This document shows, piece after piece, positions 2,647 to 49,498 of a DNA stretch of 64,000 nt (its first letter is position 1; every line of letters starts with the position of its first letter). Source of the stretch: Candidatus Acetothermia bacterium (GTDB taxonomy: Bacteria > Bipolaricaulota > Bipolaricaulia > RBG-16-55-9 > DRXL01); contig JACOSB010000035.1 of NCBI GenBank assembly GCA_016179105.1, positions 9,479 through 73,478 of the forward strand. The letters are read 5' to 3'. The notes under the pieces are model-generated. The model ran no database searches. It was not told the origin of the DNA and saw nothing but the letters and a program-made list of their open reading frames with translations. The translations under genes and the position numbers were made by a program.

Positions 2647-2659
2647 AATAAAAAAATCT

Positions 2660-3250: not shown

Positions 3251-3256
3251 TCACCG

Positions 3257-4096: not shown

Positions 4097-5420
4097 TCTT
4101 AACTTTTAGCTGGAGCACTTCTGTTTCTAGTTCCCAACTTTCGCTCTGAATCTTAAGTTTGGCAGTCGGCAAATCGTCAAACTTCATTGTCCTTATAGCG
4201 ATCATCGCTCCCAGCGCTTTTGTCTGGTCCTTGCCGTACACATCCACTACATAGCCATCCGAGAGAGCGATCGCTCGCAAGGCTTCCGTCAGCGTCGTGA
4301 TCGCCGTCTTTTTGCAAAGCTTTTCGGATTCCAAAAATACTTCGGCTTTCGCTATATGAAACTGTCCGCAAACTCGACATTCTGAATCATTGGCGTCGAG
4401 AGTTTGTTGGTTGAGTTGATAGCCGTACACAGCGAGCGCCGTTCCATCAAAGTATTTCTCGTTGTAGAGAATTTGGGTCTTCAGCGGATCGGCGGGTTGC
4501 TCCCAGTTGGCCAGCCCCAAGTAGTGATCGAAATCACTGGGAGCCATGAAATTGCTTTTCGCTTCTGCAAAGAGCCATATGGTCGCCCGCCCCACTTTGG
4601 GGGCGGCGGCCACGCGTTTAACCGCGTCCATCAAAATATCTCGCACTTGTTCTTTAGTAAACCGCCCCTCGGCCGGTCTCGACAAAGGGTCAATAATGTA
4701 TCGATACAAGAGCGATTTTAGTCCCTGTTCGGCTGAGTTCAGCTGATTCTTGTTCTCGAGATAGTATTTGAGCCCGTTGACAGAAAAGCTTGTCTTTTCT
4801 GGCTCATTCACGCGCACGGAGACCGAGTCTCGATCCGCGAGACCGGCGCTGTCTGTCACGGTGAGCATCACTTCGTAATCTCCGGGGATCGTGTATTTGT
4901 AAATCAGCTTGGGTTCGTCGCTGGTTTGACCGTCTCCAAGGTCCCAGTGATACGATTTGATAGAAGTTTCCGAGCTTTGCGAGCGCGAGGCGTCCAGCTC
5001 CACTAACAATGGAAAATCCCCGGAGATAAATTTGAGGGGAACCGCCTCTTTGCTCGTCAAGAGATGGACTGTGGCTTCGGCTTTGGGGCCGGCGCTGATT
5101 TTGATATGAACCTCTGCGTGGTTCGTCTGTTTTTTATTGTCAGTCACTGCCAAGCTGACCAGATATTCACCATTCTTTTGATATTTATGTTCTGGAGCGG
5201 CTTCGGCGCTCGTTCCCCCGTCGCCAAAGTTCCACTCGATCTTTTCTACTTTGCCAGCGGGATCGCTCCATTGACCTTGGAATTTGACGGTCTTCTCAGA
5301 AAACTTCTGACCATCCGCGGGAGCCAAAATCTTCACCGTAGGAGATTGATTCGTTTGACTGGAACAACCACCGACAACTAAGAAAATTGATGCAATTAAT
5401 GAGCATAGAATCGCTTTCAT
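4068..5420 (-). CDS. PKD-domain lipoprotein (two PKD domains plus unknown C-terminal region)
   Basis: Signal peptide with lipobox VVGG-C. PKD motifs WNFGDG...Y...G.Y.V.L.VTD and WDLGDG...PGDYEVMLTVTD. 3' end overlaps the deacetylase by 29 nt. Confidence 0.8.
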   Translation of the reverse strand: MKAILCSLIASIFLVVGGCSSQTNQSPTVKILAPADGQKFSEKTVKFQGQWSDPAGKVEKIEWNFGDGGTSAEAAPEHKYQKNGEYLVSLAVTDNKKQTNHAEVHIKISAGPKAEATVHLLTSKEAVPLKFISGDFPLLVELDASRSQSSETSIKSYHWDLGDGQTSDEPKLIYKYTIPGDYEVMLTVTDSAGLADRDSVSVRVNEPEKTSFSVNGLKYYLENKNQLNSAEQGLKSLLYRYIIDPLSRPAEGRFTKEQVRDILMDAVKRVAAAPKVGRATIWLFAEAKSNFMAPSDFDHYLGLANWEQPADPLKTQILYNEKYFDGTALAVYGYQLNQQTLDANDSECRVCGQFHIAKAEVFLESEKLCKKTAITTLTEALRAIALSDGYVVDVYGKDQTKALGAMIAIRTMKFDDLPTAKLKIQSESWELETEVLQLKVKINLAEIPDC

Positions 5421-5434
5421 ATAAATCCTTTACC

Positions 5435-5524
5435 TCACGGAGGTCGCAGAAATTCCACAGAAGACACAGAAAACGGCTCGTCGTTTTGTCCGTGCCTTCT
5501 GTACGTCTTGGTGCGCTCCGTGAT
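5435..5524. repeat. Degenerate ~90-bp palindromic intergenic element (copy 1)
   Basis: Terminal inverted repeat TCACGGAG...CTCCGTGA. Internal CACAGAAGACACAGAAAACGG is alignable with 12803-12896. Confidence 0.65.
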
Positions 5525-5542
5525 TCTATCCCTCTAATTGCG

Positions 5543-5587
5543 AAAAAGAAAGCAGCCCGGTCAGCTCTACAGACTGTTCCGGGCTGC
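5543..5587 (-). terminator. Intrinsic terminator after hppA
   Basis: Stem GCAGCCCGG/CCGGGCTGC followed on the minus strand by TTTCTTTTT, 13 nt after the hppA stop. Confidence 0.75.
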
Positions 5588-5600
5588 GCTAGTCTGTTTT

Positions 5601-7688
5601 CTACTTTAAGAACGGCACCAGCAACAGCGCGACGATGTTCGCTACTTTGATCATGGGGTTGATCGCGGGACCCGCTGTGTCTTTGTATGGGTCGCCCACG
5701 GTGTCGCCCGTGACGGCCGCTTGATGGGCAAAAGATTTCTTCGCATGCCCCGGCAACATGCCCGCTTCGATGTATTTTTTCGCGTTGTCCCAGGCCGCAC
5801 CACCCGTCGTCATCGAGATCGCGACGAAGATGCCCGTGACGATCGAGCCCACGAGCAATCCGCCGAGTGCTTTTGCGCCCAAAAAAGGAATCAAGCCCAC
5901 GATGATCGGCACCAAGACGGGGATGAGCGCGGGTACGATCATCTGTCTCTGCGCAGCCGCCGTGACGATGCGCACGCAGGCCGCATAATCTGGCTTCGCT
6001 TTGCCCGTCATAATGCCCTTGATCTCTTTGAACTGCCGGCGCACCTCTTGGATGATCGCTCCGGCCGCTTCGCCAACGGCATCCAGCGCGAGAGCCGCGA
6101 AGATAAACGGCATCGCTCCGCCGAGGAAGAGCCCGATCAAGACTGTCGGGTCCGAGAGCAAGAACTGCACTTGCTTGCCGGCATTGGCTAACTCTTGCGA
6201 GTACGCTGAGAAGAGAACGAGCGCGGCGAGTCCGGCAGAACCGATAGCGTAACCCTTCGTGACCGCTTTCGTTGTGTTGCCCACAGCGTCTAGGGGGTCA
6301 GTTACATCTCGCACAGACTCCGGCAAATCGGCCATTTCAGCGATGCCGCCGGCGTTGTCCGTGATCGGGCCATAAGCGTCAATCGCGACAATGATGCCGG
6401 TCATCGAGAGCATGGCGGTAGCGGCGATAGCAATTCCATAAAGCCCGGCTAGATTGTTGCTGAGCCCTCCCGCGAGATAATATGCCACCAGCGTCGCGGC
6501 TGAAATCAAGAGAATCGGAGCTACAGTCGCGCGTAGCGAAACGGCCAAGCCTGCAATGATGTTCGTGGCGTGACCCGTCACCGAAGCGCGGGCAATCTTA
6601 CGTACAGAGCCAAAACGAGTGGCCGTATAAAAATCCGTAATCGCGACCATGCCAATGGTCACGAGAATGCCCAAAAGTGCGCATAACCATAGCGCGAAGG
6701 GGGAAGCCGGCGTGGGATTGTCGGCCATTAACCATTGTGTAATAGGCAAGAAACCAAGTGCTGCCAGGAAGGCTGCCACTCCCATTCCCCGGTAAAGCGC
6801 TCCCATAATACTCTGGCTTTTCGGCAGGCGCACAAAGAGAGTGCCGACGATCGAACATAGAATGGAAACGCCTCCGATCACCAGCGGGAAGATCACAGCG
6901 TTGTTGAAGCCCGGCATTGCCAGATTTGCGAGCACCATGGATGCGACGGAGGTCACGGCGTAAGTTTCGAACAAATCGGCAGCCATGCCCGCGTCGTCAC
7001 CCACGTTGTCACCGACGTTGTCGGCGATCACCGCCGGGTTGCGTGGGTCATCTTCGGGAATGCCCGCCTCGATCTTGCCGACCAAATCAGCGCCCGCGTC
7101 CGCGCCCTTGGTGAAGATACCTCCGCCCAAGCGCGCGAAGACCGAGATCAGCGAACCGCCAAAGCTCAAGCCGACCAAAGCTTTCAAGACATCATCGACT
7201 TTTAAGCCGAGAGCTGTGAGAATCCCATAGTATCCAGCAACTGAGATCAAGCCCAATCCGACGACGAAAAGACCCGTGACTGCGCCGCCTTTGAATGCGA
7301 CCGAGAGCGCGTAGGCCAAGCCTCCTTTGGCAGCTTCGGCCGTGCGCACGTTGGCGCGGACAGCTACGTTCATGCCCGCATAGCCCGCGACCGCGGAGGA
7401 GATCGCGCCGATCACGAAGCCGATGGCCGTCGACCAGCCTAAGGTCCAACCTTGAGTTAAGCCGAACCCTAGCAAAATCACGAAGAAGAGTAGGGCTGCG
7501 ACTCCGGCGATGATCGAATACTGGCGATTCAGATAGGCTTGCGCGCCCTCTTGAATCGCTCGGGCGATCGATTTCATCTTTTCATCGCCTTGCGGCAAGC
7601 GCAAAATATAGAACGTCAAAATCAGTCCGTAAGCGATCGCCGCGATGCCGCAAACCACCGCCAAAAGAATCAACCACATTCCATCCAT
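5601..7688 (-). CDS. hppA: Membrane-bound H+-translocating pyrophosphatase, K+-independent type
   Basis: [48 protein letters not shown] (Lys form), [11 protein letters not shown]. Start set at ATG 7688, 8 nt after GGAGG. Confidence 0.96.
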
Positions 7689-7726
7689 CCAGAAAACCTC
7701 CCCAGGTTTCACCGCGAATTTGAGTC

Positions 7727-7755
7727 ATTATAGCAGTGAGCCTCGGGTCTGACAA
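7727..7755 (-). promoter_or_regulatory. Sigma70-type promoter for hppA
   Basis: TTGTCA-N17-TATAAT with TG extension on the minus strand. Confidence 0.75.
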
Positions 7756-7838
7756 ATTCAACGACGAGCGCCCGACTGTTCAAAACAACACTGGAATTCA
7801 GATAAAAGAGCTTGAGCCGCCTCGTTTTCTCCTGGCAC

Positions 7839-7867
7839 TTGGCAAACTGATTCCTAAGTGCTATGAT
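7839..7867 (+). promoter_or_regulatory. Sigma70-type promoter for the methyltransferase gene
   Basis: TTGGCA-N17-TATGAT with TG extension. It overlaps the ORF-track start at 7863, so the true start is downstream. Confidence 0.6.
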
Positions 7868-7916
7868 AAAGAAAAAATTAGAACCGTTTTCAGACTCGCT
7901 TGGTCTGATGGGGATT

Positions 7917-8567
7917 ATGAGTAAAAGGGTTTCTCAAGTACTTCCTAGCATAATGATCAGTGGGTTCGCGTTTGGGGTCCCGCTTTTCATCACTGACCAT
8001 CTCTCGATTCTCTTGAGCAATTTCGCGGGATTCGGGTTCATGCTGGTCTTCACCGCCTGGCTCTGGGTCGAAGTCGCGTTCGCGAACCATCTGTCGGTGA
8101 CTACTGTCCGCGATCGAATCTGGCGCGTCATCTTTGGCGTGATGATCTACGGCGGACTACTCCTGACCTTGCTGGAGTACGCCCGAGAACCTCTGCATCT
8201 TCATCCTTTGATTACTATTCTGGGCTTAGTCCTATCTGCCTCAGGAGCCATCACCCGATACTTGTCTATACGTGCGCTTGGGGTCTACTTCACCTATGAG
8301 CTGCGTGTGGAGGCGGGACAGCAAATCATCCAAGAGGGTCCATATCGCTACATCCGTCATCCGGGCTATACGGGCATCCTGTTGCTACTCGCCGGGCTAC
8401 CTTTGATCTTCCAGAGTTGGTACGGGTTTTTCTGGCTTGGTCTGGTCTGCGGCAGCTTCATGCTGATCCGCATTCCTCACGAGGAAACGATGCTGCTCGA
8501 CGCCTTCGGTGAGACGTATCGAGTCTACACGAAGCGCACCAAGCGACTGATCCCGTTTATCTATTGA
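7917..8567 (+). CDS. Isoprenylcysteine carboxylmethyltransferase (ICMT/Ste14) family membrane protein
   Basis: Multiple TM helices. LG.YFT.EL..., GPYRYIRHPGYTG and EE..L...FGE.Y..Y..RTKRLIPFIY motifs. Start is 7908 or 7917. Confidence 0.88.
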   Translation: MSKRVSQVLPSIMISGFAFGVPLFITDHLSILLSNFAGFGFMLVFTAWLWVEVAFANHLSVTTVRDRIWRVIFGVMIYGGLLLTLLEYAREPLHLHPLITILGLVLSASGAITRYLSIRALGVYFTYELRVEAGQQIIQEGPYRYIRHPGYTGILLLLAGLPLIFQSWYGFFWLGLVCGSFMLIRIPHEETMLLDAFGETYRVYTKRTKRLIPFIY

Positions 8568-8641
8568 TGAGACGATAATCTACCGATTTCACTTATTGGG
8601 AGATAATAATTGTCAAACGACTTGTGCAGGCGAAGCCCCCC

Positions 8642-8670
8642 TTGAATAAATGCGCATCTTGAATTATACT
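8642..8670 (+). promoter_or_regulatory. Sigma70-type promoter for the acidic microprotein
   Basis: TTGAAT(8642-8647)-N17-TATACT(8665-8670). Confidence 0.65.
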
Positions 8671-8698
8671 CCGTGCGCCAAAAAGGAGGATGATCTTG

Positions 8699-8875
8699 AT
8701 GAAAGCGCTGATGACCGCTGAAGAAGAGCTTAGGATTAAACGTCATACGGAGGACGAAGACGATGAGGATTGGGAGGAAGACGACTGGGAAGATGATGAG
8801 GACGAGTGGGACGATATCGACGAAGAAGAATGGGATGCCAAGAAAGAAGAGGATGACGACGAAGAGGATGATTGA
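8699..8875 (+). CDS. Small hyper-acidic protein (58 aa), function unknown
   Basis: AAGGAGG SD before ATG 8699 and its own promoter. The C-terminal 41 aa contain 33 D/E and four Trp. Confidence 0.65.
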   Translation: MKALMTAEEELRIKRHTEDEDDEDWEEDDWEDDEDEWDDIDEEEWDAKKEEDDDEEDD

Positions 8876-37490: not shown

Positions 37491-38462
37491 TTAGTAAGTC
37501 CGGGTCAATGATCGGTCGGATGCTTTTTCTTGCTCCCGCGTCAGGAAGCGCGCGACGGCCACCATTCCGTTCAAGCCGTGCTTCTCTTCAACCCCGGGAG
37601 AGTAATTGGTCGTTCCATTCACGTCATACGTAATTTTGTGGCCGAAGCGGTCTTCGATGAATTCGATGCCTGCCAAGTCGATCTCGTTCTCGCGCATGAA
37701 CGAGATGTACTGGTCAAGAATTGGGTCATCAAAGCCCTGGCGCAATTCAAAGAGATTTTGACGATCTGCACCTGTCGGCACAGCATCGGCTGTAGGACAG
37801 AACGCGTCTCCCGTCTCACAGCGCTCGGCAGGGCAGAGTTGGAAGCCTTTACTTGTGTCTGATTTTATCGCGTACAAAAATTCGCCGTCGACGATCTCTA
37901 CGCGCGTGATGAAGGGCTCCGCCGGCTCGACGTACTCTTGCAAGAGTGTGATGTGATCTCGTGGTACCTCAAAATCCGCCGAATCTACGTAGAGATCGAA
38001 CGCGTCGAGCGAACGGAAAAGTTGAACGCCGAGTCCCTTTCCCCCGCGATTGTGTTTGGTGATGAAAGGCAGAGGCATCTTGCGAGCTGCTATCTTTAGC
38101 TCTTCACCGTATCCAGAGACGGCAATTGTGTGCGGTGTGCGAATTCCCGCTCGTTGTAGCGCCGCGTATTGGCGTACCTTGCTGATCTCTAGAGCGAATG
38201 CTCGACTGCCGTTGATAACGCGTCGACCATAGCCCTCCAGCCAGGCGATCAACTCACGGTTATAATCGACACTCTCGATATGCCCGCGCGTGTGCGACGA
38301 GGGGCTCATGCGATTCAAGAAAATGCCTTCGGGCGGCTCTGAGTCTAAATCAAAGTGCCCGGTCTGAATGAACCACTCTTCGTGAGGCAAACCCGCGCGA
38401 TCGAGTTCGCGCACCAACGGAGGTAACCAATCCGGATTTTCGTACAGTACATAAATCTTCAT
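37491..38462 (-). CDS. ATP-grasp (RimK/glutathione-synthetase-like) ligase
   Basis: RVING..A..LE.SK..Q, PFITKHNRGGKGLGV, LQEYV, RVE.V.G, AGIEFI, DVNGTTNY. Start 38462 lies 2 nt after the TusA stop. Confidence 0.82.
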   Translation of the reverse strand: MKIYVLYENPDWLPPLVRELDRAGLPHEEWFIQTGHFDLDSEPPEGIFLNRMSPSSHTRGHIESVDYNRELIAWLEGYGRRVINGSRAFALEISKVRQYAALQRAGIRTPHTIAVSGYGEELKIAARKMPLPFITKHNRGGKGLGVQLFRSLDAFDLYVDSADFEVPRDHITLLQEYVEPAEPFITRVEIVDGEFLYAIKSDTSKGFQLCPAERCETGDAFCPTADAVPTGADRQNLFELRQGFDDPILDQYISFMRENEIDLAGIEFIEDRFGHKITYDVNGTTNYSPGVEEKHGLNGMVAVARFLTREQEKASDRSLTRTY

Positions 38463-38464
38463 CG

Positions 38465-38713
38465 CTACTGACTTCCTTTCTCCAGCAAGATGCGCCATTC
38501 GGCGTCTCCGGTCTTCTCGATTCCTAAAATCTTGTGTCCAGCGTTCTCGGCCCAACGCGGGATTGTCTCCAACGAGAGGGGATAATCCAACAATACTTCT
38601 AGCTGCTCACCCGGTCGTAATGCTTCTATTTTTTTTTTCGTCATCATCTGCGGATAGGGGCAAATCTCGCCTCGCACATCGAGTTTATGCAACGTCTTTG
38701 TAGCTACTGACAT
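38465..38713 (-). CDS. TusA/SirA (YeeD/TsuB-like) sulfur carrier
   Basis: LDVRGEICPYP (CPxP), G..LEVLLDYP, IP.W....GH. AGGAGAG SD before ATG 38713. Confidence 0.92.
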   Translation of the reverse strand: MSVATKTLHKLDVRGEICPYPQMMTKKKIEALRPGEQLEVLLDYPLSLETIPRWAENAGHKILGIEKTGDAEWRILLEKGSQ

Positions 38714-38736
38714 CAAGTCACTCTCCTATAAGTTTC

Positions 38737-39780
38737 TTACCCTTTGATCGTGGCCGGTACTCTCTGTTCGTCCGGCTTCCGCCCTAATTTCTTAAGTTTC
38801 TCGAATCCTTCCATGAACAAGAAGAAGCTCGCGGTCCACGCGCCCAGCACAATGAATGCCGTGGTCGTTAGGCTACTGAGCGCAAGCACGGAAAGCCCCG
38901 TGAAGCCATGCCCAATGTTGCAGCCGCCCGCGACTTGGGCTCCAAAGCCCATGAGAATACCACCCGCGAGCGCTTGCAACGTCCTACTTGCTGACGGAAG
39001 TCTCAGCTTCGCTTCGCCGCAGAGCCGACTTGCAACAAGAGCTCCAACGAATAATCCGATGAGCAAATAGCTGCCCCAGTCCAGCAACTTAAAATCCCCT
39101 GTAGTGATAAACTCAAAGAGTGAGCGAATTGGGCCGGTGATCGAGAGCCCGTAGGCACGCCCGGTTGCGCTCGAACTGAGCCACGCAGCCAAGCTGATGG
39201 CTCCCAGAATGAGCCCTGTTCTTTTCCAGGACCAGCCCTGTTGATATGTTGAAGGACCAGCTCGTAGCAACCAGACGAAGATCGGGACCCCGATGATGGC
39301 GACCAGAATCCAAACATTCAATCCAGTTAAGTTCGCTAACTGTGGAGTTTCTCCGTTGATCTGGATCGTCTGGGCTCGAAGCAGGTCTTGTAATGGCTTG
39401 AGCACGCCGATGTCAGTTGCAACCGTTGAGAGCCCGAATCCCAAGAGCGCTATGAGTGAACCGATCATGCCCTCGCCGACGCGATAGCACGTGCCGCTGC
39501 CGCAGCTGCCCGCGAGCACCATCCCCATTCCGAAGACGAAGCCACCGACAATGTTGGCTTGCCAGAAGAAAGGCGGCACATCGGGCTTGAGGAGATTCAG
39601 CGAAGCAAAGATCTGAACGCCGATGAGTTGGATCAACAGAGCTGTAGCCCACGCACGCAAAAGCGTCGTGTCACGCAACAATAAAACATCGCGAAAGGCC
39701 GTGTTGATGCAGAAGCGCCCGCGCTGAAGTGTATAACCGAGCGCCACTCCTACTACGAGACCCAATAGAACTGCCGACAC
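38737..39780 (-). CDS. YeeE/YedE (TsuA) family thiosulfate/sulfur transporter
   Basis: LQRGRFC, GGFVFGMGMVLAGSC, LMGFGAQVAGGCNIG, with all three family Cys present. GTG start 39780 after GGAGGAG. Confidence 0.92.
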   Translation of the reverse strand: MSAVLLGLVVGVALGYTLQRGRFCINTAFRDVLLLRDTTLLRAWATALLIQLIGVQIFASLNLLKPDVPPFFWQANIVGGFVFGMGMVLAGSCGSGTCYRVGEGMIGSLIALLGFGLSTVATDIGVLKPLQDLLRAQTIQINGETPQLANLTGLNVWILVAIIGVPIFVWLLRAGPSTYQQGWSWKRTGLILGAISLAAWLSSSATGRAYGLSITGPIRSLFEFITTGDFKLLDWGSYLLIGLFVGALVASRLCGEAKLRLPSASRTLQALAGGILMGFGAQVAGGCNIGHGFTGLSVLALSSLTTTAFIVLGAWTASFFLFMEGFEKLKKLGRKPDEQRVPATIKG

Positions 39781-39793
39781 AGTTTCTCCTCCG

Positions 39794-40762
39794 TTACCAG
39801 CACGTGCTCGTATGGCGGTCACCATTGGCAACTACGCCTCCGGTCGCGACAGGGAATTTTTCGTCACTGCCCCATTCAGCCCAAGAAGCATCATAGACGC
39901 GCACATCTGAATAGCCCAACAGTCTCAATTGAAAGTACGCGAGCGCGGCACGCACGCCCGTCTCGCTGTAGGTCAAGATTGTTCTCGATGGACCGATGTT
40001 GCGATAAAGCAATCTAAGCTCGTTCGCTTTCTTAAAGTATCCGTTCAACTCTAACGCTTTTTCGGCGGGCACGAGCAACGCCCCAGGAATATGTCCAATA
40101 TGCTCTCCGTGCGAATGTCCGCTGCCGTAGCCCATTGCGTATTCTTGAGCTGTGCGCGAGTCGATTACTTGTATGCTTGGGTCTGGTAGATGTTCGAGCA
40201 GCCAATCCCCGGTAACGATCTTCTTCGCGTCGGCGCGCAGATTGAGCTTTGAAGGTGTAAGCGAAGGCGTTTCGTTCGTGAGTCTTCCACCCACAGCGGT
40301 CCACGCAGCCAAACCTCCGTCCAAGAGTTTTACATTCTGAAACTGATAGTATTCGAGAATCCAGAAGAGACGCCCCGCCCAGCGGCTTTGCTCGTCATCG
40401 TACAACACAATCGTCATGTCTCTGTCCATAGCAGCCCGTTCGAGCAAAGGCTGAAGCTGTTCGGGCGAGGCGACTAATCTTGGGAAACCTTGGGTCCACG
40501 TGTTTACGTCTGCGTCCCACAGATTCACAGAATTAGGGATATGCTGGAACCGATACTTGAGCGGGCCACGAGCATCAACGATGCGCACTTTAGACGTCTC
40601 ATCCACGCGCTCCTGAAGCCACTGGGCAGTGACGAGCAAATCGGAATTGGGATAGGTAGCACTGAGCGCTCGAAAGCCGTACAGGCCTGAGCCAATCACG
40701 CTCAAGGCCAAACCCGCTTCTACCGTTCTTTTAAGCAGGTCACGTCGCGAAAGAGTGCTCAT
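39794..40762 (-). CDS. Tat-exported tandem-domain rhodanese (sulfurtransferase) homolog with Cys-to-Ser at the active site
   Basis: SRRDLLK twin-arginine motif; IVDAR....Y...HIP, LDGG..AW, IDSR...EY, GHIPGA, YDASW.EW. Active loop reads TYSETGVRA. Confidence 0.88.
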   Translation of the reverse strand: MSTLSRRDLLKRTVEAGLALSVIGSGLYGFRALSATYPNSDLLVTAQWLQERVDETSKVRIVDARGPLKYRFQHIPNSVNLWDADVNTWTQGFPRLVASPEQLQPLLERAAMDRDMTIVLYDDEQSRWAGRLFWILEYYQFQNVKLLDGGLAAWTAVGGRLTNETPSLTPSKLNLRADAKKIVTGDWLLEHLPDPSIQVIDSRTAQEYAMGYGSGHSHGEHIGHIPGALLVPAEKALELNGYFKKANELRLLYRNIGPSRTILTYSETGVRAALAYFQLRLLGYSDVRVYDASWAEWGSDEKFPVATGGVVANGDRHTSTCW

Positions 40763-40785: not shown

Positions 40786-41976
40786 TTAGCGACTACCGCA
40801 GCAGGGCAAGGCGCACGCCTCACCACCGAGGTTGACGATCGGCAGAGAGTTTAACGCGACACCGAGTAAAGCGGGCACTGAGGTCTTTAGAGCTATAGCG
40901 CCTGCAGGCCGCGGCCCGACGTTGATCGTCTTGATGACTTTCTGCTGCGCCACGTCGACGACGACAACTGTGTTCTGGTTTTGAATCGGGACATAGAATT
41001 TCTTCCCGTCGATCGAAAAATCTCCGGTGATGGGGTTGCCACCCTTGGCCAACTCAATCGTGTTGACGATCTTAAGCTCTTTAAGATCGACCACGCTGAT
41101 CGTCCCGCTGTCGCGGTTGATGATAAAGTTAAACTTCGCGTCGAGGGTGAATTCATCCGTAATTGGGCCCTTGCCCAAACCGTCATCCGGCGTGAGCCGT
41201 TTGACCTCCACAGGCGTTAGTGGGTTGCTCACATCGAAGATGCTCTCGGTCCCGCTTGGCGGTTCGACGTTCTCGACGAAGACCCATTTCCCATCGCGCG
41301 AGGCTGTTCCCATAAAGGGTTCGACTTTTTGATCGGCCTTAGTCAGAACTTTCGGTACCGGCACCGTCGCGATCACTTTAAAGCTCGCCAGATCGATGAC
41401 TGAAAAATTGTCGCTATTGCGGTCTGGGCTGTATGAGTACTTCCCGTCGGGCGAGACGGTGATGTCGCAAGGTCCAGCGTTGTTGTAGGTCTTAAAGTTC
41501 GCGATTACTTCGCCAAAGTTTGGCTTGGATGGATCAGCGCCAATTTTAAAATATGTGTCCGTAAATCGATTGGACGAGATCGTGAACTGCCCATCGGGTG
41601 TTGTCTCTGTGTAGTTCTGGGCCGAGTTGGTCGCGATCTTTTTGACGACCTTACCTTGGGCAAGATCAATCACTTGCACCTCTTTGGCTTGGTCCGCTAG
41701 CAGACCAGTCCAGATTAGGCTGGTCGTCTTAAAGTGCTTATTCGCACCGAAACTAAAGTTGCTCCCGGCGGCGATCGTCTTGACGATCGTGTCAGTCACG
41801 CTGTCGATGAGCGTGACGCTGTTATCGCCTGTGTTGGAGATGGCGATCAAATCCTTGGCTTCGCTTTGTGCAAAGCCCAAAGAGGACCGCGAGAGCACCC
41901 AGGCGACACCCGTCGTAGCACTCATAACTTTGAGGAAAGAACGACGTGAGATCGACTTTTCTTTGCTTCGACTCAT
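40786..41976 (-). CDS. Tat-exported YncE/YVTN-like beta-propeller protein with Cys-rich tail
   Basis: SRRSFLK twin-arginine motif, propeller repeats (SPDGKY.Y, TLDAKF, SIDGKKFYV, INVGPRP), C-terminus CALPCCGSR. AAGGAGG SD before ATG 41976. Confidence 0.82.
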   Translation of the reverse strand: MSRSKEKSISRRSFLKVMSATTGVAWVLSRSSLGFAQSEAKDLIAISNTGDNSVTLIDSVTDTIVKTIAAGSNFSFGANKHFKTTSLIWTGLLADQAKEVQVIDLAQGKVVKKIATNSAQNYTETTPDGQFTISSNRFTDTYFKIGADPSKPNFGEVIANFKTYNNAGPCDITVSPDGKYSYSPDRNSDNFSVIDLASFKVIATVPVPKVLTKADQKVEPFMGTASRDGKWVFVENVEPPSGTESIFDVSNPLTPVEVKRLTPDDGLGKGPITDEFTLDAKFNFIINRDSGTISVVDLKELKIVNTIELAKGGNPITGDFSIDGKKFYVPIQNQNTVVVVDVAQQKVIKTINVGPRPAGAIALKTSVPALLGVALNSLPIVNLGGEACALPCCGSR

Positions 41977-42424: not shown

Positions 42425-43825
42425 TCAATTGGCAACTTGAAATGCCGCCGACCAGTCCGAGATAAAATCTTTAGCAGCCGCGGGCACGGTGAGCGTGCCC
42501 TTGTCGGAGCGCTTACGCTCGATATGCCCGATCACTTGCGGATTGTGTCCCAGTTTTTTCAGCTCTAGCTCGATTTGCTGAATGACTTTGGGGCTGGCGA
42601 CGATTGCGAGCGCCCCGTTCGTGCCAGAAGTTCCGTTTGGAATGATAAACTGCTTGGATGCTTCACGGACTAACTTTTCGTAAATTAACGGGATTCGTTC
42701 GAGCCTCACGTCGACGTTCGCGTTCTCGGCCAGCTCTTGAAAAATGTCCAAGCCGGGGCCGGAGAGATCGCCCGTCGCTTTGATATGCTGACTTGGGTCA
42801 AACGCCTCGTTAAGCTTTGGAGAATGTCCATAGATTACTCGGCCGATTTCCAAATTGGGCTTCGAGAGAAGGTCTACGATATGGTCTTTCGCGCAGCGAA
42901 CTTCTTCGGGTTGAAGACCGAGCTTTTGCAAATAGCCATCGCCCATCACCAATCCCTCGATCCAGAGATTGATCGGGGCGAGATCGCCGAAGGGACGATG
43001 GACAAGAATCAGATCGCCCTTCTGAATTTTGTCGTAGAATGTCGGCGTCTGTCGATCCGTCTCAGCGAAGACGGTCGCGCCGAGCAAAAGCGTTTTCTCC
43101 GAGACGGGCTCGCGCTCCACTAGCTCAAAGCCATAGCGACGTGAATGATCTCGGAGATTCTGCAAGATTTTCTGACGCAGCGATTCGTTGGGGGCGGCAT
43201 AGACTGGATGAATCTGGATATTCTGCACGGCTCCGAGTGAGAAAAGATCATTCAAGGCGTTGTTGATCGCGGCGGCAGTCTGCTGCGGTGCTCCCAGGTC
43301 GATTGTGGGGTCGATCAATTGAATCGTGTCGTTATTCGCGATGAGAAAACCCCGTGGCTGGCCACGCTTCTCGCTCAGGAAAAAATCAAAAAGAGCGAAT
43401 TCGTCTTCGGGCGTATAAGCCTCGATCGTGTGCCCCTTCCCGATCATAATTTGCAGTTGCTTCGCCGGGAATTTTTCATAAAGTTTCAGCCACTTTTGTG
43501 CCAGCGCTTCAGGTTGGCGTGTGCGATAGACCGAAGTGACGGTGATCGCGCGCTCCGGCTTGAATTCACTCACTGAGTCTAGCGAAAACTGTGAGAAAGG
43601 CGCGTGTATGCGCTTGATTTGTGGCGCTCCGTAAAGTGGAGAGATGTCGGCGTCTTCGCGCGGAGCGAGGTTAATGCCCCACTGTTTGAGAGTCGGCTTG
43701 ATCTGATGTAGGGCCGGATAGACAACACGTCGTAAATCAATCTTGACCGCGCAGCCGCAGGCCAATTTATGCGGGTTCAGATTTAAATCAGAAAGATATT
43801 TTTGGATCTCATCCCACGTTTGCAT
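42425..43825 (-). CDS. SelD-related (AIR-synthase/PurM superfamily) putative sulfur-metabolism protein
   Basis: NPHKLACGCAVKIDL..VVYPAL (Cys/Lys loop), REDADI, NNALNDLFSLG (cf. SelD NALSDIYAMG), ATGDLSGPG (cf. TDVTGFG). Longer than canonical SelD. Confidence 0.78.
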   Translation of the reverse strand: MQTWDEIQKYLSDLNLNPHKLACGCAVKIDLRRVVYPALHQIKPTLKQWGINLAPREDADISPLYGAPQIKRIHAPFSQFSLDSVSEFKPERAITVTSVYRTRQPEALAQKWLKLYEKFPAKQLQIMIGKGHTIEAYTPEDEFALFDFFLSEKRGQPRGFLIANNDTIQLIDPTIDLGAPQQTAAAINNALNDLFSLGAVQNIQIHPVYAAPNESLRQKILQNLRDHSRRYGFELVEREPVSEKTLLLGATVFAETDRQTPTFYDKIQKGDLILVHRPFGDLAPINLWIEGLVMGDGYLQKLGLQPEEVRCAKDHIVDLLSKPNLEIGRVIYGHSPKLNEAFDPSQHIKATGDLSGPGLDIFQELAENANVDVRLERIPLIYEKLVREASKQFIIPNGTSGTNGALAIVASPKVIQQIELELKKLGHNPQVIGHIERKRSDKGTLTVPAAAKDFISDWSAAFQVAN

Positions 43826-44329
43826 AGAGCAGGCCCCTTTGAACGCTTGACGTTTTTATTGTGTAGATGGAGACAAAGTTAATAGACGTGCCAACGCTCG
43901 AAAAAATCCCTACGAGACGGATGATTGAAGCTTGAAGATGGGGATAGGCTGCGCGTGAAAAACTAACAGAGTGTGTGCCGACAAAGGCAACCACTGGCGA
44001 GTCTGTTAGCTACGACAAAGGCGATCACCGCACATAAAATTTTCCTCCATTTGGAAACTGTGGGCTATTGTATCACGATAGGTTAGGCCTGTCAAGAAAT
44101 TCAGTGAGTGCCGTTAGCCAAAAAAAGTGATCCTGGTACGATGGGAGTGGGACACGTGGGCTTTAGTCGCACTATAGACTTAGCCTACAATTTTCTTGAG
44201 AGATTGGACGCGAGAAGGTGTATGGAGACAAGAACGGGGCTCACTTCTGCAATGGTCACCTTGCCCAACTTAACTTTTTTTGAATTCCCAACTGATAAAA
44301 GATTTAGTGGTCCTAAGGAGGAGTTTCGC

Positions 44330-47300
44330 GTGTGCACCCATTCTCACACCAAAGATGCTAATGAGCCAAACTGTTTAGCTAGACGCACATGGCTATTATT
44401 CAGTGCATTTCTGTTGACAGCGTTGCTAGTCGGAAGTACGGCTCTAGCTGCTCCCGATCTTTCAATCGCTAAGAGCCACAGCGGTAATTTTACCGTAGGA
44501 ATCAATGGGGTTTACACGATCACGGTCACTAACGTCGGACCGGATAGCACCACCGGAGCAATCACTGTGACGGATACCCTACCCACCGGGTTAAACTTTG
44601 TCTCGGGCACCGGCAGCGGTTGGAGCTGCTCGGCCGTCGGTCAAACCGCGACTTGCACGAATGCCGGCCCGCTCGCCGCCAGTGCCACCAGCAACATTAC
44701 CCTCACCGTGAGCGCAAGCGCTGCGGGAAACTTGACCAATATCGCGAATGTCGCCACATCGGGCGACACAAACTCGGCCAACGATACAGCGAGCGATCCC
44801 ACCACCGTGAACGCGAACCCTCAACCCGATTTGCAGATCACCAAGAGCCATAGCGGAAATTTTACGTTGGGGATCAACAGTGTCTACACCCTAACTGTGA
44901 CCAACGTCGGCTCCGCTAGTACCACAGGCACCATCACTGTCACCGATACTCTTCCGACGGGCTTAAGCTTTGTCTCGGGCATTGGCAGTGGATGGAGCTG
45001 TTCTGCGGTTGTGCTGACCGTGACCTGCACAAACCCTGGTCCCTTGGCTCCGAGCGCAACGGCGAGTATCACACTTACTGTCGGCGTGAACGTAGCTGGC
45101 AACGTAACTAACCTCGCCACTGTCTCGACCTCCGGCGATACCAACGCCTCGAACGATACAGCGAGTGACCCCACTACGGTCAATACAACTCCCCAGCCGG
45201 ACTTAGCGATCAGCAAGAGCCACAGCGGGAATTTTACGGTCGGCGTCAACGGGTCCTATACGCTCACTATCACCAACGTCGGCTCGTCAAGTACGAGTGG
45301 CACAATTACCGTGACGGATACACTGCCTACGGGCCTGAGTTTTGTATCCGGGGTCGGAACGAGTTGGAGCTGCGGAGCGGTGGGACTGACGGTCACTTGT
45401 ACCAACCCCGGCCCGCTCGCGCCGAGCGCCACCAGCACGATCACTCTGACGGTGAGCGTCAGTATCTCAGGGAATGTCACCAATATTGCGACGGTTTCTA
45501 CTGCGGGCGACACGAATGCTGCGAATAATACCGCGAGCAATCCCACAGCCATCAACGCCACCCTCCAACCCGACTTATCGGTCAGCAAGACTCACGCTGG
45601 TAACTTCACCCGAGGAGTGAACGGAACCTACACAATCACAGTCACCAACGTCGGTGCAGCCAGTACCACTGGCACGCTCACGGTAACAGACACGCTCCCC
45701 TCGGGTTTGAGCTTCGTCTCGGGCGCCGGTACTGGCTGGACTTGTTCTGCCGTCGGCCAAACCGTCACTTGCACTAACGCCACCGCGCTTGCTCCCAGCA
45801 CTAGCAGCACGATAACTCTCACCGTCAGTGTTAACGTCGCTGGCAATGTCACCAACATTGCGACCGCCGCGGGCTCTGGTGATACGAACCCAGCGAACGA
45901 TACCACCAGCGACCCGACTACCATCAACACTACGGCACAACCTGATCTTTTGATCAGCAAGAGCCACAGTGGGAATTTTACGGTCGGCGTTAACGGGACC
46001 TATACACTCATTGTCACCAACGTCGGCTCCGCCAGTGCGACGGGGACCCTCACGGTCACGGACACGCTCCCGACGGGCTTGAGCTTTGTCTCGGGCACCG
46101 GCAGCGGCTGGAGCTGCTCGGCCGTCGGTCAAACGGTTACCTGTACTAACCCTGGTCCTTTGGCCGTCAGCGCGAGCAGCACGATTACTCTCACCGTCGG
46201 CGTGAACATCGCGGGCGGGGTGACCAACATCGCGACTGTCACCAACTCTGCCGACACCAATCCAGCGAATAATACTGCCAGTGATCCAACGACTATCGTG
46301 GGAGCCACGGGAGTCGATCTCGCAATTACGAAGAGCCACAGCGGGAATTTTTCTGTTGGGGTGAATGGGACCTATACGATCACGGTGACGAACCTCGGGT
46401 CAGCTAGCACCACTGGAACCATCACCGTGACGGACACGCTGCCCACGGGCATGAGCTTTGTTGCTGGGATCGGCAGCGGCTGGACTTGTTCGGCCAGCGG
46501 TCAGACTGTTAGCTGCACTAATCCCGGCCCACTCGCTCCCAGCGCTAGCAGCACCATTACGCTCACTGTCGGCGTCAATGTCGCCGGAAGCCTGACCAAT
46601 ATTGCCACCGTCGCAGCCTCTGGTGATACAAATTCTGCAAACAATACAGCCAGCGATCTTACGATTATCATGGGCACCAATGGGCTTGACCTGACAATCA
46701 CCAAGAGCCATAGCGGAAATTTCACGCTGGGCGTCAACGGGACCTACACACTTACGGTAACGAACGTCGGCTCCGCCAGCACGACGGGGACCATTACTGT
46801 GACAGACACGTTGCCCACGGGTTTGAGCTTTGTTGCTGGGATCGGCAGCGGCTGGACTTGTTCGACTGTTGGCCCAATTGTCACGTGTACGAACCCCGGC
46901 CCCCTCGCTCCCAGCGCTAGCAGCACGATCACTCTAACAGTGAATGTCAGTCTCGCCGGGAATTTGACGAATATAGCAACTGTTTCGGTCTCAGGTGATA
47001 CCAATTCGACGAACAACATCGCCAGTGATGCCACGACTATCAATGCGACGCCTCAACCCGACCTTTCGATCAGCAAGAGTCACAGCGCGAGTTTTATAGC
47101 CGGGACCGATGGGACCTATACGATCACGGTGACGAACGTGGGCTCCGCCAGCACGACGGGGACCATTACCGTGACGGACACGTTGCCCACGGGCATGAGC
47201 TTTGTTGCTGGGATCGGCAGCGGCTGGACTTGTTCGGCTGTCGGGCAAATTGTCACGTGTACGAACCCCGGCCCACTCGCTCCTAGTGCCACCAGCACTA

Positions 47301-49498
47301 TTACTCTCACGGTGGGTGTCAACGTCGCGGGCAGCCTGACCAATATCGCCACCGTCGCAGCCTTAGGCGATATGAATTCCGCCAACAATATTACGAGTGA
47401 CTCTACTACTGTAAACGCGGCAACTCACCCGGATCTGGCGATAAGCAAGACTCACAGTGGGAATTTTACGGTGGGAATCAATGGGACGTTTACCCTCGCG
47501 GTCACCAACGTGGGCTCGGCCAGCACGACGGGAACGATCACTCTGACGGACACACTGCCTACGGGGTTGGGGTTCGTTTCAGGGACAGGCACGAATTGGA
47601 GCTGTGGAGCTTCCGGGCAGATCATCACTTGCACCAACTCTGGTCCTTTGGCACCAAGCGCGGTCAGTAATCTCACTCTTACAGTGAGTGTGAATATTGC
47701 CGGCAATCTCACGAACACTGCAACCATCTCAACCCAAGATGATACCAATGCCACCAACAACACGGCCACTGATCCGGTGACCATTAACGCTACAGCTCAG
47801 CCAGATCTTTCGATCAGCAAGAGCCACAGCGGAAACTTTACGGTGGGAGTCAATGGAACATACACACTCACCGTGACGAACATGGGCTCCGCGAGTACCA
47901 CCGGAACGATCACCGTCACGGACTCGTTGCCCGCGGGGTTGAGCTTCGTCTCCGGCATAGGTAGCGCCTGGACGTGCAACGCTGTCTCTAAGACCGTCAC
48001 GTGTACCAATCCCGGCCCGCTCGCGCCCAGCGCCACGAGCACAGCCACACTGACCGTCGGCGTGAGTGTCTCGGGCAATCTGACCAACATCGCCACCGTC
48101 GCCTCCACGGGAGATGCCAATGCGACGAACAATACTGCCAGCGATCTCACTACGGTGAACGCAGCCCTGGAACCCGATCTCTCTCTCAGCAAGAGCCACA
48201 GCGGGAATTTTACCGTGGGACTCGTCGGGACCTATACACTCACGGTAACCAATGTCGGCTCGGCGAGCACAACCGGAGTCATCACTGTGACCGATACGTT
48301 GCCATTGGGATTGAGCTTCATATCAGGGACGGGCGCGGGCTGGAATTGCAGTGCGATGAGCTTAACGATTATTTGTACCAATCCGGGGCCGCTCGCACCG
48401 AGCACCAGCAGCACGATCTCTCTTGTGGTCGGCGTGAGCATCGCCGGGAACTGGACGAATATCGCCACGGTCTCGACCGCCGGCGATACGAATCCCTCCA
48501 ACAACGCAGCCAACGATCCCACGATCGTCAACGCCTCGCCTCAACCCGACTTGCAGATCACCAAGAGCCATAACGGGAATTTTACGGTGGGAACGACCGG
48601 CTCGTATGCGCTGACGATCACTAACGTCGGTGCCGCCAGCACGACAAGTCTGATCACTGTGGTCGATACGTTGCCGACGGGCCTGAGCTTTTTGGCAGGC
48701 ACCGGCAGCGGCTGGACCTGCGGAGCCGTGGCCCAGGTTATCACTTGCACCAATCCCGGCCCGCTCGCGTCCACTGCCGCAAGCAATCTCACACTGACAG
48801 TCGGAGTGAGTCTTTCCGGGGGCCTCACCAACGTCGCGACGGCCGCGACTCTCGGAGATACGAACCCGGTCAACAATTTCACGACGGACCCGACGATCGT
48901 CATGCCCGCGAGCAACGTTCTGATCCGCGCGACCATGCGGGCTGATGTGCTAACGCCCTTCATCGCTTACACTGTTATTCTGACTAACGCTGGCACGCAC
49001 GATCAGACGGACAACCCGGGCAACGAATTTGAAGCGCCGATTCCTCCCGGAACTCAGTTTATCCCGGAGCAGAGCAGTGCGACGTCCGGGACGCTCACGT
49101 TTGACGCGGCGACCAACAAAGCCCTTTGGAACGGCTCCATCCCAATCGGCCAGAGCGTGACGATCAGCATCGTCGTCAATGCTCAGACAATCCTGGGAGC
49201 GGCTAGCCAACCTTCCGATCGGCAAGCGAATGCCCTTCCTGTTTCGCTCGTATTTTTGAGCCCGTTGGTAGCCGGTCTTGCTTTAGTATTGAGGAAGAGA
49301 CGCGGGTGGGTCTTAGTTATGCTGCTCTTTTTTTTGGCTACGGCGAGCACCGGATGCACATTGTTCAACTTCAATCATCCGTTGGTCTGCAACCAAGGAC
49401 AAGTGCACTACGATTCGGACGGCAACGGAATCAACGATTCGGTCGAATTGACCAACGACCCGCGAATGCCTCAGCCCGGCACGCCAACGTGTATCTGA
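44330..49498 (+). CDS. Giant surface protein with 12 DUF11-like Ig repeats and a C-terminal membrane anchor
   Basis: GTG start 44330 after AAGGAGGAG, then a signal peptide. Repeats read PDL.I.KSHSGNF..G.NG.Y...VTNVG...VTDTLP.GL.F....W.C......C. TM segments near the C-terminus. Confidence 0.88.
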   Translation: MCTHSHTKDANEPNCLARRTWLLFSAFLLTALLVGSTALAAPDLSIAKSHSGNFTVGINGVYTITVTNVGPDSTTGAITVTDTLPTGLNFVSGTGSGWSCSAVGQTATCTNAGPLAASATSNITLTVSASAAGNLTNIANVATSGDTNSANDTASDPTTVNANPQPDLQITKSHSGNFTLGINSVYTLTVTNVGSASTTGTITVTDTLPTGLSFVSGIGSGWSCSAVVLTVTCTNPGPLAPSATASITLTVGVNVAGNVTNLATVSTSGDTNASNDTASDPTTVNTTPQPDLAISKSHSGNFTVGVNGSYTLTITNVGSSSTSGTITVTDTLPTGLSFVSGVGTSWSCGAVGLTVTCTNPGPLAPSATSTITLTVSVSISGNVTNIATVSTAGDTNAANNTASNPTAINATLQPDLSVSKTHAGNFTRGVNGTYTITVTNVGAASTTGTLTVTDTLPSGLSFVSGAGTGWTCSAVGQTVTCTNATALAPSTSSTITLTVSVNVAGNVTNIATAAGSGDTNPANDTTSDPTTINTTAQPDLLISKSHSGNFTVGVNGTYTLIVTNVGSASATGTLTVTDTLPTGLSFVSGTGSGWSCSAVGQTVTCTNPGPLAVSASSTITLTVGVNIAGGVTNIATVTNSADTNPANNTASDPTTIVGATGVDLAITKSHSGNFSVGVNGTYTITVTNLGSASTTGTITVTDTLPTGMSFVAGIGSGWTCSASGQTVSCTNPGPLAPSASSTITLTVGVNVAGSLTNIATVAASGDTNSANNTASDLTIIMGTNGLDLTITKSHSGNFTLGVNGTYTLTVTNVGSASTTGTITVTDTLPTGLSFVAGIGSGWTCSTVGPIVTCTNPGPLAPSASSTITLTVNVSLAGNLTNIATVSVSGDTNSTNNIASDATTINATPQPDLSISKSHSASFIAGTDGTYTITVTNVGSASTTGTITVTDTLPTGMSFVAGIGSGWTCSAVGQIVTCTNPGPLAPSATSTITLTVGVNVAGSLTNIATVAALGDMNSANNITSDSTTVNAATHPDLAISKTHSGNFTVGINGTFTLAVTNVGSASTTGTITLTDTLPTGLGFVSGTGTNWSCGASGQIITCTNSGPLAPSAVSNLTLTVSVNIAGNLTNTATISTQDDTNATNNTATDPVTINATAQPDLSISKSHSGNFTVGVNGTYTLTVTNMGSASTTGTITVTDSLPAGLSFVSGIGSAWTCNAVSKTVTCTNPGPLAPSATSTATLTVGVSVSGNLTNIATVASTGDANATNNTASDLTTVNAALEPDLSLSKSHSGNFTVGLVGTYTLTVTNVGSASTTGVITVTDTLPLGLSFISGTGAGWNCSAMSLTIICTNPGPLAPSTSSTISLVVGVSIAGNWTNIATVSTAGDTNPSNNAANDPTIVNASPQPDLQITKSHNGNFTVGTTGSYALTITNVGAASTTSLITVVDTLPTGLSFLAGTGSGWTCGAVAQVITCTNPGPLASTAASNLTLTVGVSLSGGLTNVATAATLGDTNPVNNFTTDPTIVMPASNVLIRATMRADVLTPFIAYTVILTNAGTHDQTDNPGNEFEAPIPPGTQFIPEQSSATSGTLTFDAATNKALWNGSIPIGQSVTISIVVNAQTILGAASQPSDRQANALPVSLVFLSPLVAGLALVLRKRRGWVLVMLLFFLATASTGCTLFNFNHPLVCNQGQVHYDSDGNGINDSVELTNDPRMPQPGTPTCI
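44453..48916 (+). repeat. Twelve intragenic tandem repeats of exactly 372 nt (124 aa)
   Basis: KSH/KTH codons at 44471, 44843, 45215, 45587 ... 48563; 48563-44471 = 11 x 372. Confidence 0.92.

Follow-up and report, generated by a model that had tools for sequence, protein, structure and literature searches.

The window analysed here is a stretch of 64,000 nucleotides from Candidatus Acetothermia bacterium (assembly GCA_016179105.1, contig JACOSB010000035.1, positions 9,479 to 73,478 of the forward strand). On its minus strand, genes for a SelD-related protein, a beta-propeller, a rhodanese, a YeeE transporter, a TusA/YeeD sulfur carrier, and a RimK-like ATP-grasp protein follow one another in this order (Table 1). 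The rhodanese, hereafter the window protein, is the subject of this study: it carries serine in place of the catalytic cysteine of its active-site loop and ends in Cys-Trp. Loss of the loop cysteine together with this ending recurs in a small conserved family, here called the C-W family. Because the family is encoded directly upstream of a YeeE/YeeD importer, its members are probably sulfur-carrying partners that serve the importer from outside. Literature searches on rhodaneses with a C-terminal cysteine arm, on periplasmic rhodaneses linked to YeeE and devoid of the catalytic cysteine, and on the sulfur genes of Bipolaricaulota turned up no description of the C-W family or of an outside partner of YeeE.

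A tandem rhodanese with serine in its active-site loop

Pfam PF00581 matches the window protein twice (E 2e-36), and among solved structures the tandem rhodaneses 1UAR, 8K55, and 3HZU match it best. The AlphaFold 2 model of its mature form (predicted local distance difference test score, pLDDT, 93.2; predicted template-modelling score 0.91) superposes on 1UAR and 3HZU with template-modelling (TM) scores of 0.86-0.88. Pfam, phmmer, and Foldseek returned only rhodanese families and structures as matches and did not return the type II periplasmic binding-protein fold (Sbp/CysP). Against the NCBIfam model for 3-mercaptopyruvate sulfurtransferase, the protein scores 117 bits, compared with a cut-off of 250. 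Ser266 (codon AGC, 39965-39967) occupies the place of the catalytic cysteine, and in the phmmer alignments to these three structures it falls exactly on their catalytic Cys (YCRIAERS or YCRIGERS). The first-pass annotation of this DNA had read serine for the persulfide-carrying cysteine from the loop codons TAC AGC GAG ACG GGC, and both the sequence and the alignments bear it out. Judged from its sequence, the window protein is a tandem rhodanese in fold but lacks the loop cysteine that defines a sulfurtransferase.

The chain closes with H-T-S-T-C-W-stop (Cys321, 39800-39802; Trp322, 39797-39799; TAA, 39794-39796), which confirms at the codon level the S-T-C-W end described earlier, and Cys321 is the sole cysteine of the protein. 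A structure prediction of the protein alone, which had also been suggested, is informative on the fold and much less so on the tail: the pLDDT of the undocked C-terminal arm is 65 and falls to 48, and that of the His-rich loop lies between 69 and 76. In the model, the C-terminal tail looks mobile. Two further ideas about this tail were considered and rejected. A cofactor of the cysteine tryptophylquinone type had come to mind through a weak propeller match to the quinohemoprotein amine dehydrogenase beta subunit, far below the cut-off; the Cys and Trp residues are adjacent, and no maturation genes are present. A C-terminal sorting signal was dismissed since no transmembrane segment follows the tail.

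The first-pass annotation had also singled out a His-rich insert in front of the G-H-I-P-G-A motif, which proved to have no general significance. The loop is four to five residues longer than in most close relatives and about as long as the corresponding loop of 1UAR, and its His-rich form is limited to the window protein and, in part, one close relative (P0002). The alignment identifies it not as a conserved insert but as a lineage-specific version of a loop in which a substrate-binding arginine usually sits, and a conserved metal site was ruled out on the same distribution. The window protein retains the loop arginine (S-E-T-G-V-R), and isoleucine replaces the second one (E-H-I-G-H-I-P-G-A).

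An identical protein, annotated as a sulfurtransferase, is held at NCBI under Candidatus Acetothermia bacterium. The gene is also present on contigs of four groundwater metagenome runs, in which the codons of Ser266 and Cys321 show no variants. Single-base differences between the window and the contigs of three of the four runs, at 39763 (C>A, in yeeE) and 40168 (C>T, in the rhodanese gene), spare the loop and the tail and indicate that closely related strains co-occur.

Table 1. Features of the rhodanese locus in the window (coordinates of the whole stretch)
Feature	Position	Strand	Description
CW-tail pseudo-rhodanese gene	39794..40762	-	322 aa, ATG start, Tat (twin-arginine translocation) signal or anchor, two rhodanese domains, C-terminal Cys-Trp arm
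Active-site loop Y-S-E-T-G-V-R-A	39947..39970	-	codons TAC AGC GAG ACG GGC GTG CGT GCC
C-terminal arm, residues 305-322	39797..39850	-	variable linker and S-T-C-W end
His-rich loop G-S-G-H-S-H-G-E-H, residues 213-221	40100..40126	-	just before I-G-H-I-P-G-A
Twin-arginine motif S-R-R-D-L-L-K, residues 5-11	40730..40750	-	N-terminus M-S-T-L-S-R-R-D-L-L-K, canonical S/T-R-R-x-F/L-L-K
Weakly hydrophobic N-terminal helix, residues 12-35	40658..40729	-	signal h-region or uncleaved membrane anchor
YeeE/TsuA-family sulfur transporter	38737..39780	-	347 aa, Pfam PF04143, E 4.5e-83
TusA/YeeD-like sulfur carrier	38465..38716	-	83 aa, C-P-Y-P Cys motif, Pfam PF01206, E 1e-24
RimK-like ATP-grasp protein	37491..38462	-	323 aa, ATG 38460-38462 abuts tusA stop; Pfam RimK, E 5e-5
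Tat-exported 7-bladed YVTN-type beta-propeller	40786..41976	-	396 aa, ends C-A-L-P-C-C-G-S-R; Pfam YNCE, Cytochrom_D1
SelD-related putative sulfur-metabolism protein	42425..43825	-	466 aa, NCBIfam NF038049, 453.5 bits (cut-off 250)

Conservation and ancestry of the C-W family

Homologues came from a word-indexed search, from an exhaustive profile search across 1.84 billion representative sequences, and, for three further genes, from neighbouring loci; the census of C-terminal tails covers the best 150 representatives of the rhodanese-family matches. Fifteen proteins, 24-100% identical to the window protein, end in C-W, one of them as C-W-Q. Their loop residue is Ser in 12, Gly in two, and Ala in one, and none of the 278 aligned domains that do have a loop cysteine ends in C-W. 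The S-[TL]-C-W tail is invariant across the family and absent from nine Cys-type comparators, with its cysteine in the penultimate position in 14 members and in the antepenultimate position in one. The linker between Pro304 and this cysteine measures 16-19 residues in every member and varies in sequence. In 14 of the 15 proteins, the tail cysteine is the only one (the exception has one more, in a membrane helix), which fits a dedicated carrier thiol. Of the features that had been singled out for alignment, a serine or other non-Cys residue in the loop and the tail cysteine are thus conserved, and the His-rich segment, limited to two proteins, is not.

The substrate pocket has fared differently from the tail. 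The loop arginine of the C-x-x-G-x-R motif is present in eight of the 15 members, with Glu, Gln, or Asp in the others, and in all nine comparators. The Arg-bearing loop before G-H-I-P-G-A is deleted in six members, and another residue takes the place of its arginine in the window protein and P0002; all nine comparators keep it. The members with Gly or Ala have degenerate active-site loops (for example, G-N-T-P-I-E-A). These losses argue against a conserved canonical oxyanion pocket, and the alignment suggests that constraint in this family is stronger on the tail than on the pocket. Clade-specific conservation extends to Asp83, Arg95, and Trp128 of the N-domain and to Glu15 of the N-terminal helix.

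The first-pass annotation had offered two functions for such a protein, and the family tells between them in part. According to one, the body is a non-catalytic binding protein for thiosulfate or another oxyanion that feeds YeeE. Its part would then resemble that of CysP or Sbp in an ATP-binding cassette importer, and the tail cysteine would have only an accessory role, for example in anion hydrogen bonding or as an entrance plug. Such a protein could make use of the x-T-G-V-R-A loop backbone, which the window protein and the members nearest to it have kept, and serine would be a conservative swap that preserves the anion cradle and abolishes turnover; the tight linkage to YeeE and the transport of intact thiosulfate by the YeeE of S. 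thermophila (StYeeE; PMC7449682) also agree with it. It sits poorly, however, with the acidic or amide residues that replace the loop arginine in seven members, with the loss of the second substrate-binding arginine, and with the glycine, alanine, and degenerate loops, and it leaves the invariant tail and the purge of other cysteines unexplained. We therefore regard a binding protein as unlikely. The other function, a carrier in which the tail cysteine swings to its partner, is favoured by a conserved tail that holds the only cysteine.

The loop could also owe its serine to a sequencing error, to a private mutation, or to the decay of a functionless pseudogene: the codons TGC (Cys) and AGC (Ser) differ in one base, and the relative P0005 is truncated. 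The earlier reading was to be abandoned if close homologues or reads all had the cysteine, and this was checked. The loop cysteine occurs in 0/15 family members, which come from separate assemblies and environments and share the tail; the four independent runs agree at both codons; and the fold is predicted with high confidence. An artefact thus has next to no probability. P0005 itself has 258 residues, is 64% identical to the window protein, breaks off before the active-site loop with unrelated end residues, and lies on a 30-kb contig together with the propeller P0270; a frameshift, a pseudogene, or a misassembly would each account for it.

A neighbour-joining tree was calculated from the core domains only, after removal of the tail, the N-terminus, and the catalytic column. 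It groups 14 of the 15 C-W proteins and gives the L095 protein a long branch. Closest to the C-W proteins in it are the Cys-type rhodaneses of loci L002, L090, L092, and L095, which are yeeE-tusA-type loci; the rhodaneses of L010, L016, and L012 lie outside the tree sample. Since the C-W sequences belong mostly to one lineage, they cannot be counted as 15 independent events, and the sequences are best read as the outcome of one ancient switch, possibly two, selected down to about 32% core identity. A profile scan of genome contigs with generic rhodanese motifs yielded no family member; all of its matches were Cys-type rhodaneses with identities no higher than 35%.

The twin-arginine motif of the window protein is intact, as noted earlier, and the R-R pair is found in 13 of the 15 family members; the exceptions, P0007 and the L095 protein, combine K-R with a hydrophobic helix. 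The segment behind the motif (T-V-E-A-G-L-A-L-S-V-I-G-S-G) is weakly hydrophobic in the window protein, and three distant members (P0182, P0190, and the L095 protein) have a clearly hydrophobic N-terminal helix. Across the family, this helix conserves E15 (Glu in 13/15), L18, and L33, which is unusual for a signal peptide, and several members have Arg just ahead of the putative cleavage site. These features suggest that the protein is exported, with its catalytic-side domains outside, and that the N-terminal helix is probably kept as a membrane anchor.

The YeeE-TusA cluster and its neighbours

The link to YeeE proposed in the first-pass annotation was substantiated by the gene neighbourhood. 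In the window, yeeE begins 13 nucleotides past the rhodanese stop codon with a GTG (39778-39780) preceded by the ribosome-binding site GGAGGAG. It is the next gene in 11 of the 12 C-W rhodanese loci, and a tusA/yeeD-like gene follows it in all 10 loci that reach far enough. As a control, YeeE occurs near only 4 of 80 generic Cys-type tandem rhodanese loci from the genome-contig scan. The window protein is thus probably the outside partner of YeeE-YeeD.

Aligned with S. thermophila YeeE (6LEO), the window YeeE scores 200 bits and has the three pathway cysteines C22, C91, and C293 conserved. It stands beside a TusA-like protein with a C-P-x-P motif, and a three-Cys PF04143 protein next to such a carrier is the gene arrangement of the YeeE/TsuA-YeeD/TsuB uptake system. 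The NCBIfam equivalog cut-offs are missed (TsuA 281 versus 400 bits, YeeD 51 versus 147.5), and thiosulfate is thus no more than a candidate substrate. The TusA-like protein matches the YedF, YeeD, and TusA models of NCBIfam, all below cut-off, with YedF as the best. A fourth cysteine of the window YeeE, Cys98 (39487-39489, minus strand), lies five residues past the C91 equivalent in a C-x-x-G-x-C-Y-R motif; it is shared by 11/11 YeeE proteins encoded next to C-W rhodaneses (those of the window, L001, L002, L004, L087-L089, L092, and L094-L096), and the position is Thr in S. thermophila YeeE and Tyr in YeeE proteins from Spirochaete metagenome-assembled genomes.

Upstream of the rhodanese, the propeller belongs to a sharply separated subfamily of 15 proteins, all of which have an R-R signal and a C-x-x-x-C-C-G-x-x end; the aligned members share an extra cysteine in a G-P-C-D motif and have four or five cysteines in total. 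The AlphaFold 2 model of the propeller has a pLDDT of 89.3, dropping to 70 and then 57 in the tail, and a Foldseek search with it brought up no specific enzyme, all matches being generic 7-bladed propellers of the YVTN, lactonase, and cd1 types. In 8 of 12 loci, the gene directly ahead of the C-W rhodanese encodes the tri-Cys-tail propeller. Together, the two proteins might form an extracellular sulfur-mobilising complex, in which the C-W and C-x-x-x-C-C-G tails link up through intermolecular disulfides or polysulfides, whether to open S8 or polysulfide chains or to join the proteins, and the propeller or a released soluble species hands the sulfur to YeeE. The shared Tat signals and the lowered pLDDT of both tails agree with this arrangement. 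The propeller is, however, absent or tailless in L087, L092, and L002, where C-W rhodanese, YeeE, and TusA persist, and its fold indicates no specific chemistry, so that we consider such a complex quite unlikely.

Next to the propeller lies the SelD-related gene, which is syntenic in at least five other loci (L001, L087, L002, L096, and L090) and often comes right after a PALP gene. Its product has an N-terminal A-C-G-C-A-V-K motif, and a sequence search of the PDB with it gave nothing significant. The family was described from Crenarchaeota, in organisms without selenium use (PMC4210487); here, it occurs in Bipolaricaulota. The PALP neighbour (cysteine-synthase-type) comes either with the SelD-related protein or with a JAB and ThiS-ThiF-rhodanese set, and through these genes the cluster is connected with the assimilation of sulfur into cysteine. 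Locus L094 illustrates the second case (867-8780: PALP, JAB, ThiS-ThiF-rhodanese fusion, propeller, C-W rhodanese, YeeE, TusA, SBP56): a cysteine-synthesis set of the protein-thiocarboxylate type takes the place of the SelD-related gene, and SBP56, of the selenium-binding-protein family, follows TusA. In L090 (16-3506), PALP and the SelD-related gene are followed by a gene that joins a cytoplasmic Cys-type rhodanese to a TusA domain, with no YeeE downstream on the contig.

These neighbours also bear on the substrate and on the direction of transport. A resemblance to the YedE/YedF/SelD gene set, the best TusA score on the YedF model, the SelD-related gene upstream, and the SBP56 gene adjoining the cluster in L094 would suit a selenium pathway, in which the thiols of the rhodanese and propeller tails trap selenite as selenotrisulfide or perselenide for a YedE-like channel and a SelD-like enzyme. 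The transporter scores far better on the TsuA models (281 and 219 bits) than on those for selenium YedE (115 and 43), however, the SelD-related protein falls into a putative sulfur-metabolism family from organisms that do not use selenium (PMC4210487), and in L094 the cysteine-synthesis set replaces it; we therefore hold a role in selenium uptake to be very improbable. Export offers only a slim chance as well. In that case, YeeE and TusA would move sulfane sulfur outward to the tail cysteine for disposal or an extracellular reaction, and the cytoplasmic Cys-type rhodaneses encoded in L092 and L095 could load TusA from the inside; against this, characterised YeeE/TsuA proteins are importers (PMC11073785; PMC7449682), and the PALP, ThiS-ThiF-JAB, and SelD-related neighbours indicate assimilation into cysteine.

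A Cys-type rhodanese accompanies the C-W protein in some loci, exported in L002 and cytoplasmic in L092 and L095. In Spirochaetes, the phylum of the crystallised YeeE, two loci (L010:1343-4705 and L016:4453-7893) encode, in this order, an exported protein of 367-374 residues ending in G-S-F-A-C-F, YeeE, an anchored Cys-type tandem rhodanese, and TusA. The first of these proteins has no significant Pfam match, and its homology to the window propeller could not be established (BLASTP E 0.11). Its penultimate cysteine and aromatic end suggest that Cys-bearing C-terminal tails recur in proteins that work outside YeeE.

At the other end of the window cluster, the RimK-like ATP-grasp protein matches the NCBIfam model rimK_fam below cut-off, and its gene takes the same position in L001, L087, L096, and probably L088. 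RimK-family ATP-grasp enzymes often modify protein C-termini, which is worth noting beside conserved C-terminal tails. Divergent from the sulfur cluster, an open reading frame for 1796 residues (44108-49498, plus strand) consists almost entirely of repeats of about 90-100 residues (S-H-S-G-N-F-T-V-G ... T-V-T-D-T-L-P-T-G-L-S-F-V-S-G). Its product also has a hydrophobic segment at the N-terminus and a transmembrane stretch at the C-terminus.

Proposed sulfur hand-off and comparison with known systems

We propose, with a probability of roughly 45%, that the window protein is an extracytoplasmic pseudo-rhodanese that serves as the outside partner of YeeE-YeeD and in which Cys321 acts as a swinging sulfur carrier in place of the loop cysteine. 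Taken by itself, a functional role of the tail cysteine is likely. The folded protein, which bears the twin-arginine motif, would leave the cytoplasm through the Tat pathway and probably stay tethered by its N-terminal helix, and the rhodanese body, with its eroded pocket residues, may serve mainly as a scaffold or docking module. On its flexible arm of about 17 residues, Cys321 would take up sulfane sulfur as a persulfide, either directly from polysulfide or thiosulfate, from the tri-Cys tail of the propeller, or from a co-encoded Cys-type rhodanese where one is present.

Work on related transporters indicates how the loaded arm might be received. In StYeeE, the outermost pathway cysteine, C293, lies in a positively charged periplasmic indentation that holds thiosulfate (PMC7449682), the conserved cysteine of YeeD takes sulfur adducts (PMC11073785), and sulfane sulfur has been proposed to pass from the C-terminal cysteine of SoxY through the channel cysteines of the YeeE-like SoxT to TusA (PMC11582611). 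By analogy with the step from SoxY to SoxT, the anionic end of the arm, formed by the persulfide and the terminal carboxylate and anchored by the tryptophan, could enter the positively charged outer indentation of YeeE and hand its sulfur to the outermost pathway cysteine (Cys287 of the window YeeE, corresponding to StYeeE C293). The sulfur would then travel along the YeeE cysteines to the cytoplasmic cysteine of TusA/YeeD and on to cysteine synthesis, a last link suggested by the SelD-related, ThiS-ThiF-rhodanese-JAB, and PALP neighbours in related loci. It appears doubtful that all of this amounts to a complete covalent relay across the membrane, in which the tri-Cys tail of the propeller loads the arm, the arm reaches into the YeeE funnel, and a ladder of cysteines leads to TusA/YeeD.

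Several observations weigh against a swinging carrier at the YeeE entrance. S. thermophila YeeE alone transports thiosulfate in liposomes, with no outside partner, and its cysteines have been proposed to work by hydrogen bonds and not by a covalent relay (PMC7449682; PMC11073785). AlphaFold places the tail nowhere with confidence, the bootstrap value for the monophyly of the 14 grouped family members is weak (36/100), and the window cluster encodes no rhodanese with a loop cysteine, a candidate sulfur donor. One family member, P0190 (L091, on a 1.8-kb contig), is followed by a beta-lactamase-family gene and not by yeeE.

The proposed carrier bears on the question of what YeeE/YedE proteins transport, intact thiosulfate or sulfane sulfur passed from Cys to Cys, and of how external sulfur arrives at them. 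If the complete covalent relay is correct, at least some YeeE-family proteins would be persulfide relays with dedicated outside carriers and not simple thiosulfate channels, and the switch from loop to tail cysteine would be a natural case of a catalytic residue moving to a mobile arm. For SoxT, SoxY is only a proposed donor, and the C-W family provides a compact, genetically linked, single-thiol candidate for such a partner. The family also presents a rhodanese that has lost its loop cysteine yet stays under selection, and the cluster would constitute a route by which Bipolaricaulota/Acetothermia, a groundwater lineage with few cultivated members, assimilate sulfur.

Among characterised proteins, the closest in fold are the tandem thiosulfate and mercaptopyruvate sulfurtransferases (TST/MST), such as the T. 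thermophilus rhodanese (1UAR), SseA (3HZU) and CysA2/3 of M. tuberculosis, and RhdA of A. vinelandii (1E0C), which have the same two-domain fold (Foldseek TM 0.85-0.88) at 27-33% identity. The active-site loop is equally long, and the G-H-I-P-G-A and Y-D-G-S-W-E-W (YDGSW-EW) motifs are common to both. In contrast to these enzymes, the window protein has Ser for Cys, has lost the arginine before G-H-I-P-G-A, and has gained a Tat signal or anchor and an arm with a penultimate cysteine. The uncharacterised Cys-type rhodaneses of yeeE-tusA clusters, which are exported or anchored in Spirochaetes (L010, L016), SAR324 (L012), and L002 and cytoplasmic in L092, L095, and L090, likewise differ from it in keeping the loop cysteine and both arginines and in having no C-W tail.

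In its presumed mode of action, the window protein recalls carriers of other folds. Like SoxY, which forms SoxYZ and is paired with SoxT, it would be an extracytoplasmic protein with a single functional cysteine near the C-terminus on a mobile arm (PMC11582611). The folds of the two are unrelated, hand-off to a YeeE-type protein is hypothetical in both systems, and none of the loci showed Sox genes. SoxY carries the motif G-G-C-G-G, as opposed to S-T-C-W here. DsrC/TusE offers a second parallel, in that the penultimate cysteine of a flexible C-terminal arm carries sulfur, as proposed for the window protein, and is followed by one hydrophobic residue; DsrC, however, is cytoplasmic, has an unrelated fold and a second cysteine ten residues upstream (C-x10-C-V), and works with DsrAB. 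By fold and motif, the window protein would at most work like these carriers and is a member of neither family.

Exported rhodaneses that handle sulfane sulfur include Sud of Wolinella, a single-Cys polysulfide carrier for a membrane enzyme, and PspE and YnjE of E. coli; the YnjE structures 2WLR and 3IPO are among the structural and sequence matches of the window protein. All three have the canonical loop cysteine, and to our knowledge none has a C-terminal cysteine arm or a link to YeeE. Rhodanese domains in which the active-site cysteine is replaced are presumed to be non-catalytic modules, and those that we know of are N-terminal or regulatory domains of larger proteins. In the window protein, by contrast, the loss affects the normally catalytic C-terminal domain and is paired with a new conserved cysteine.

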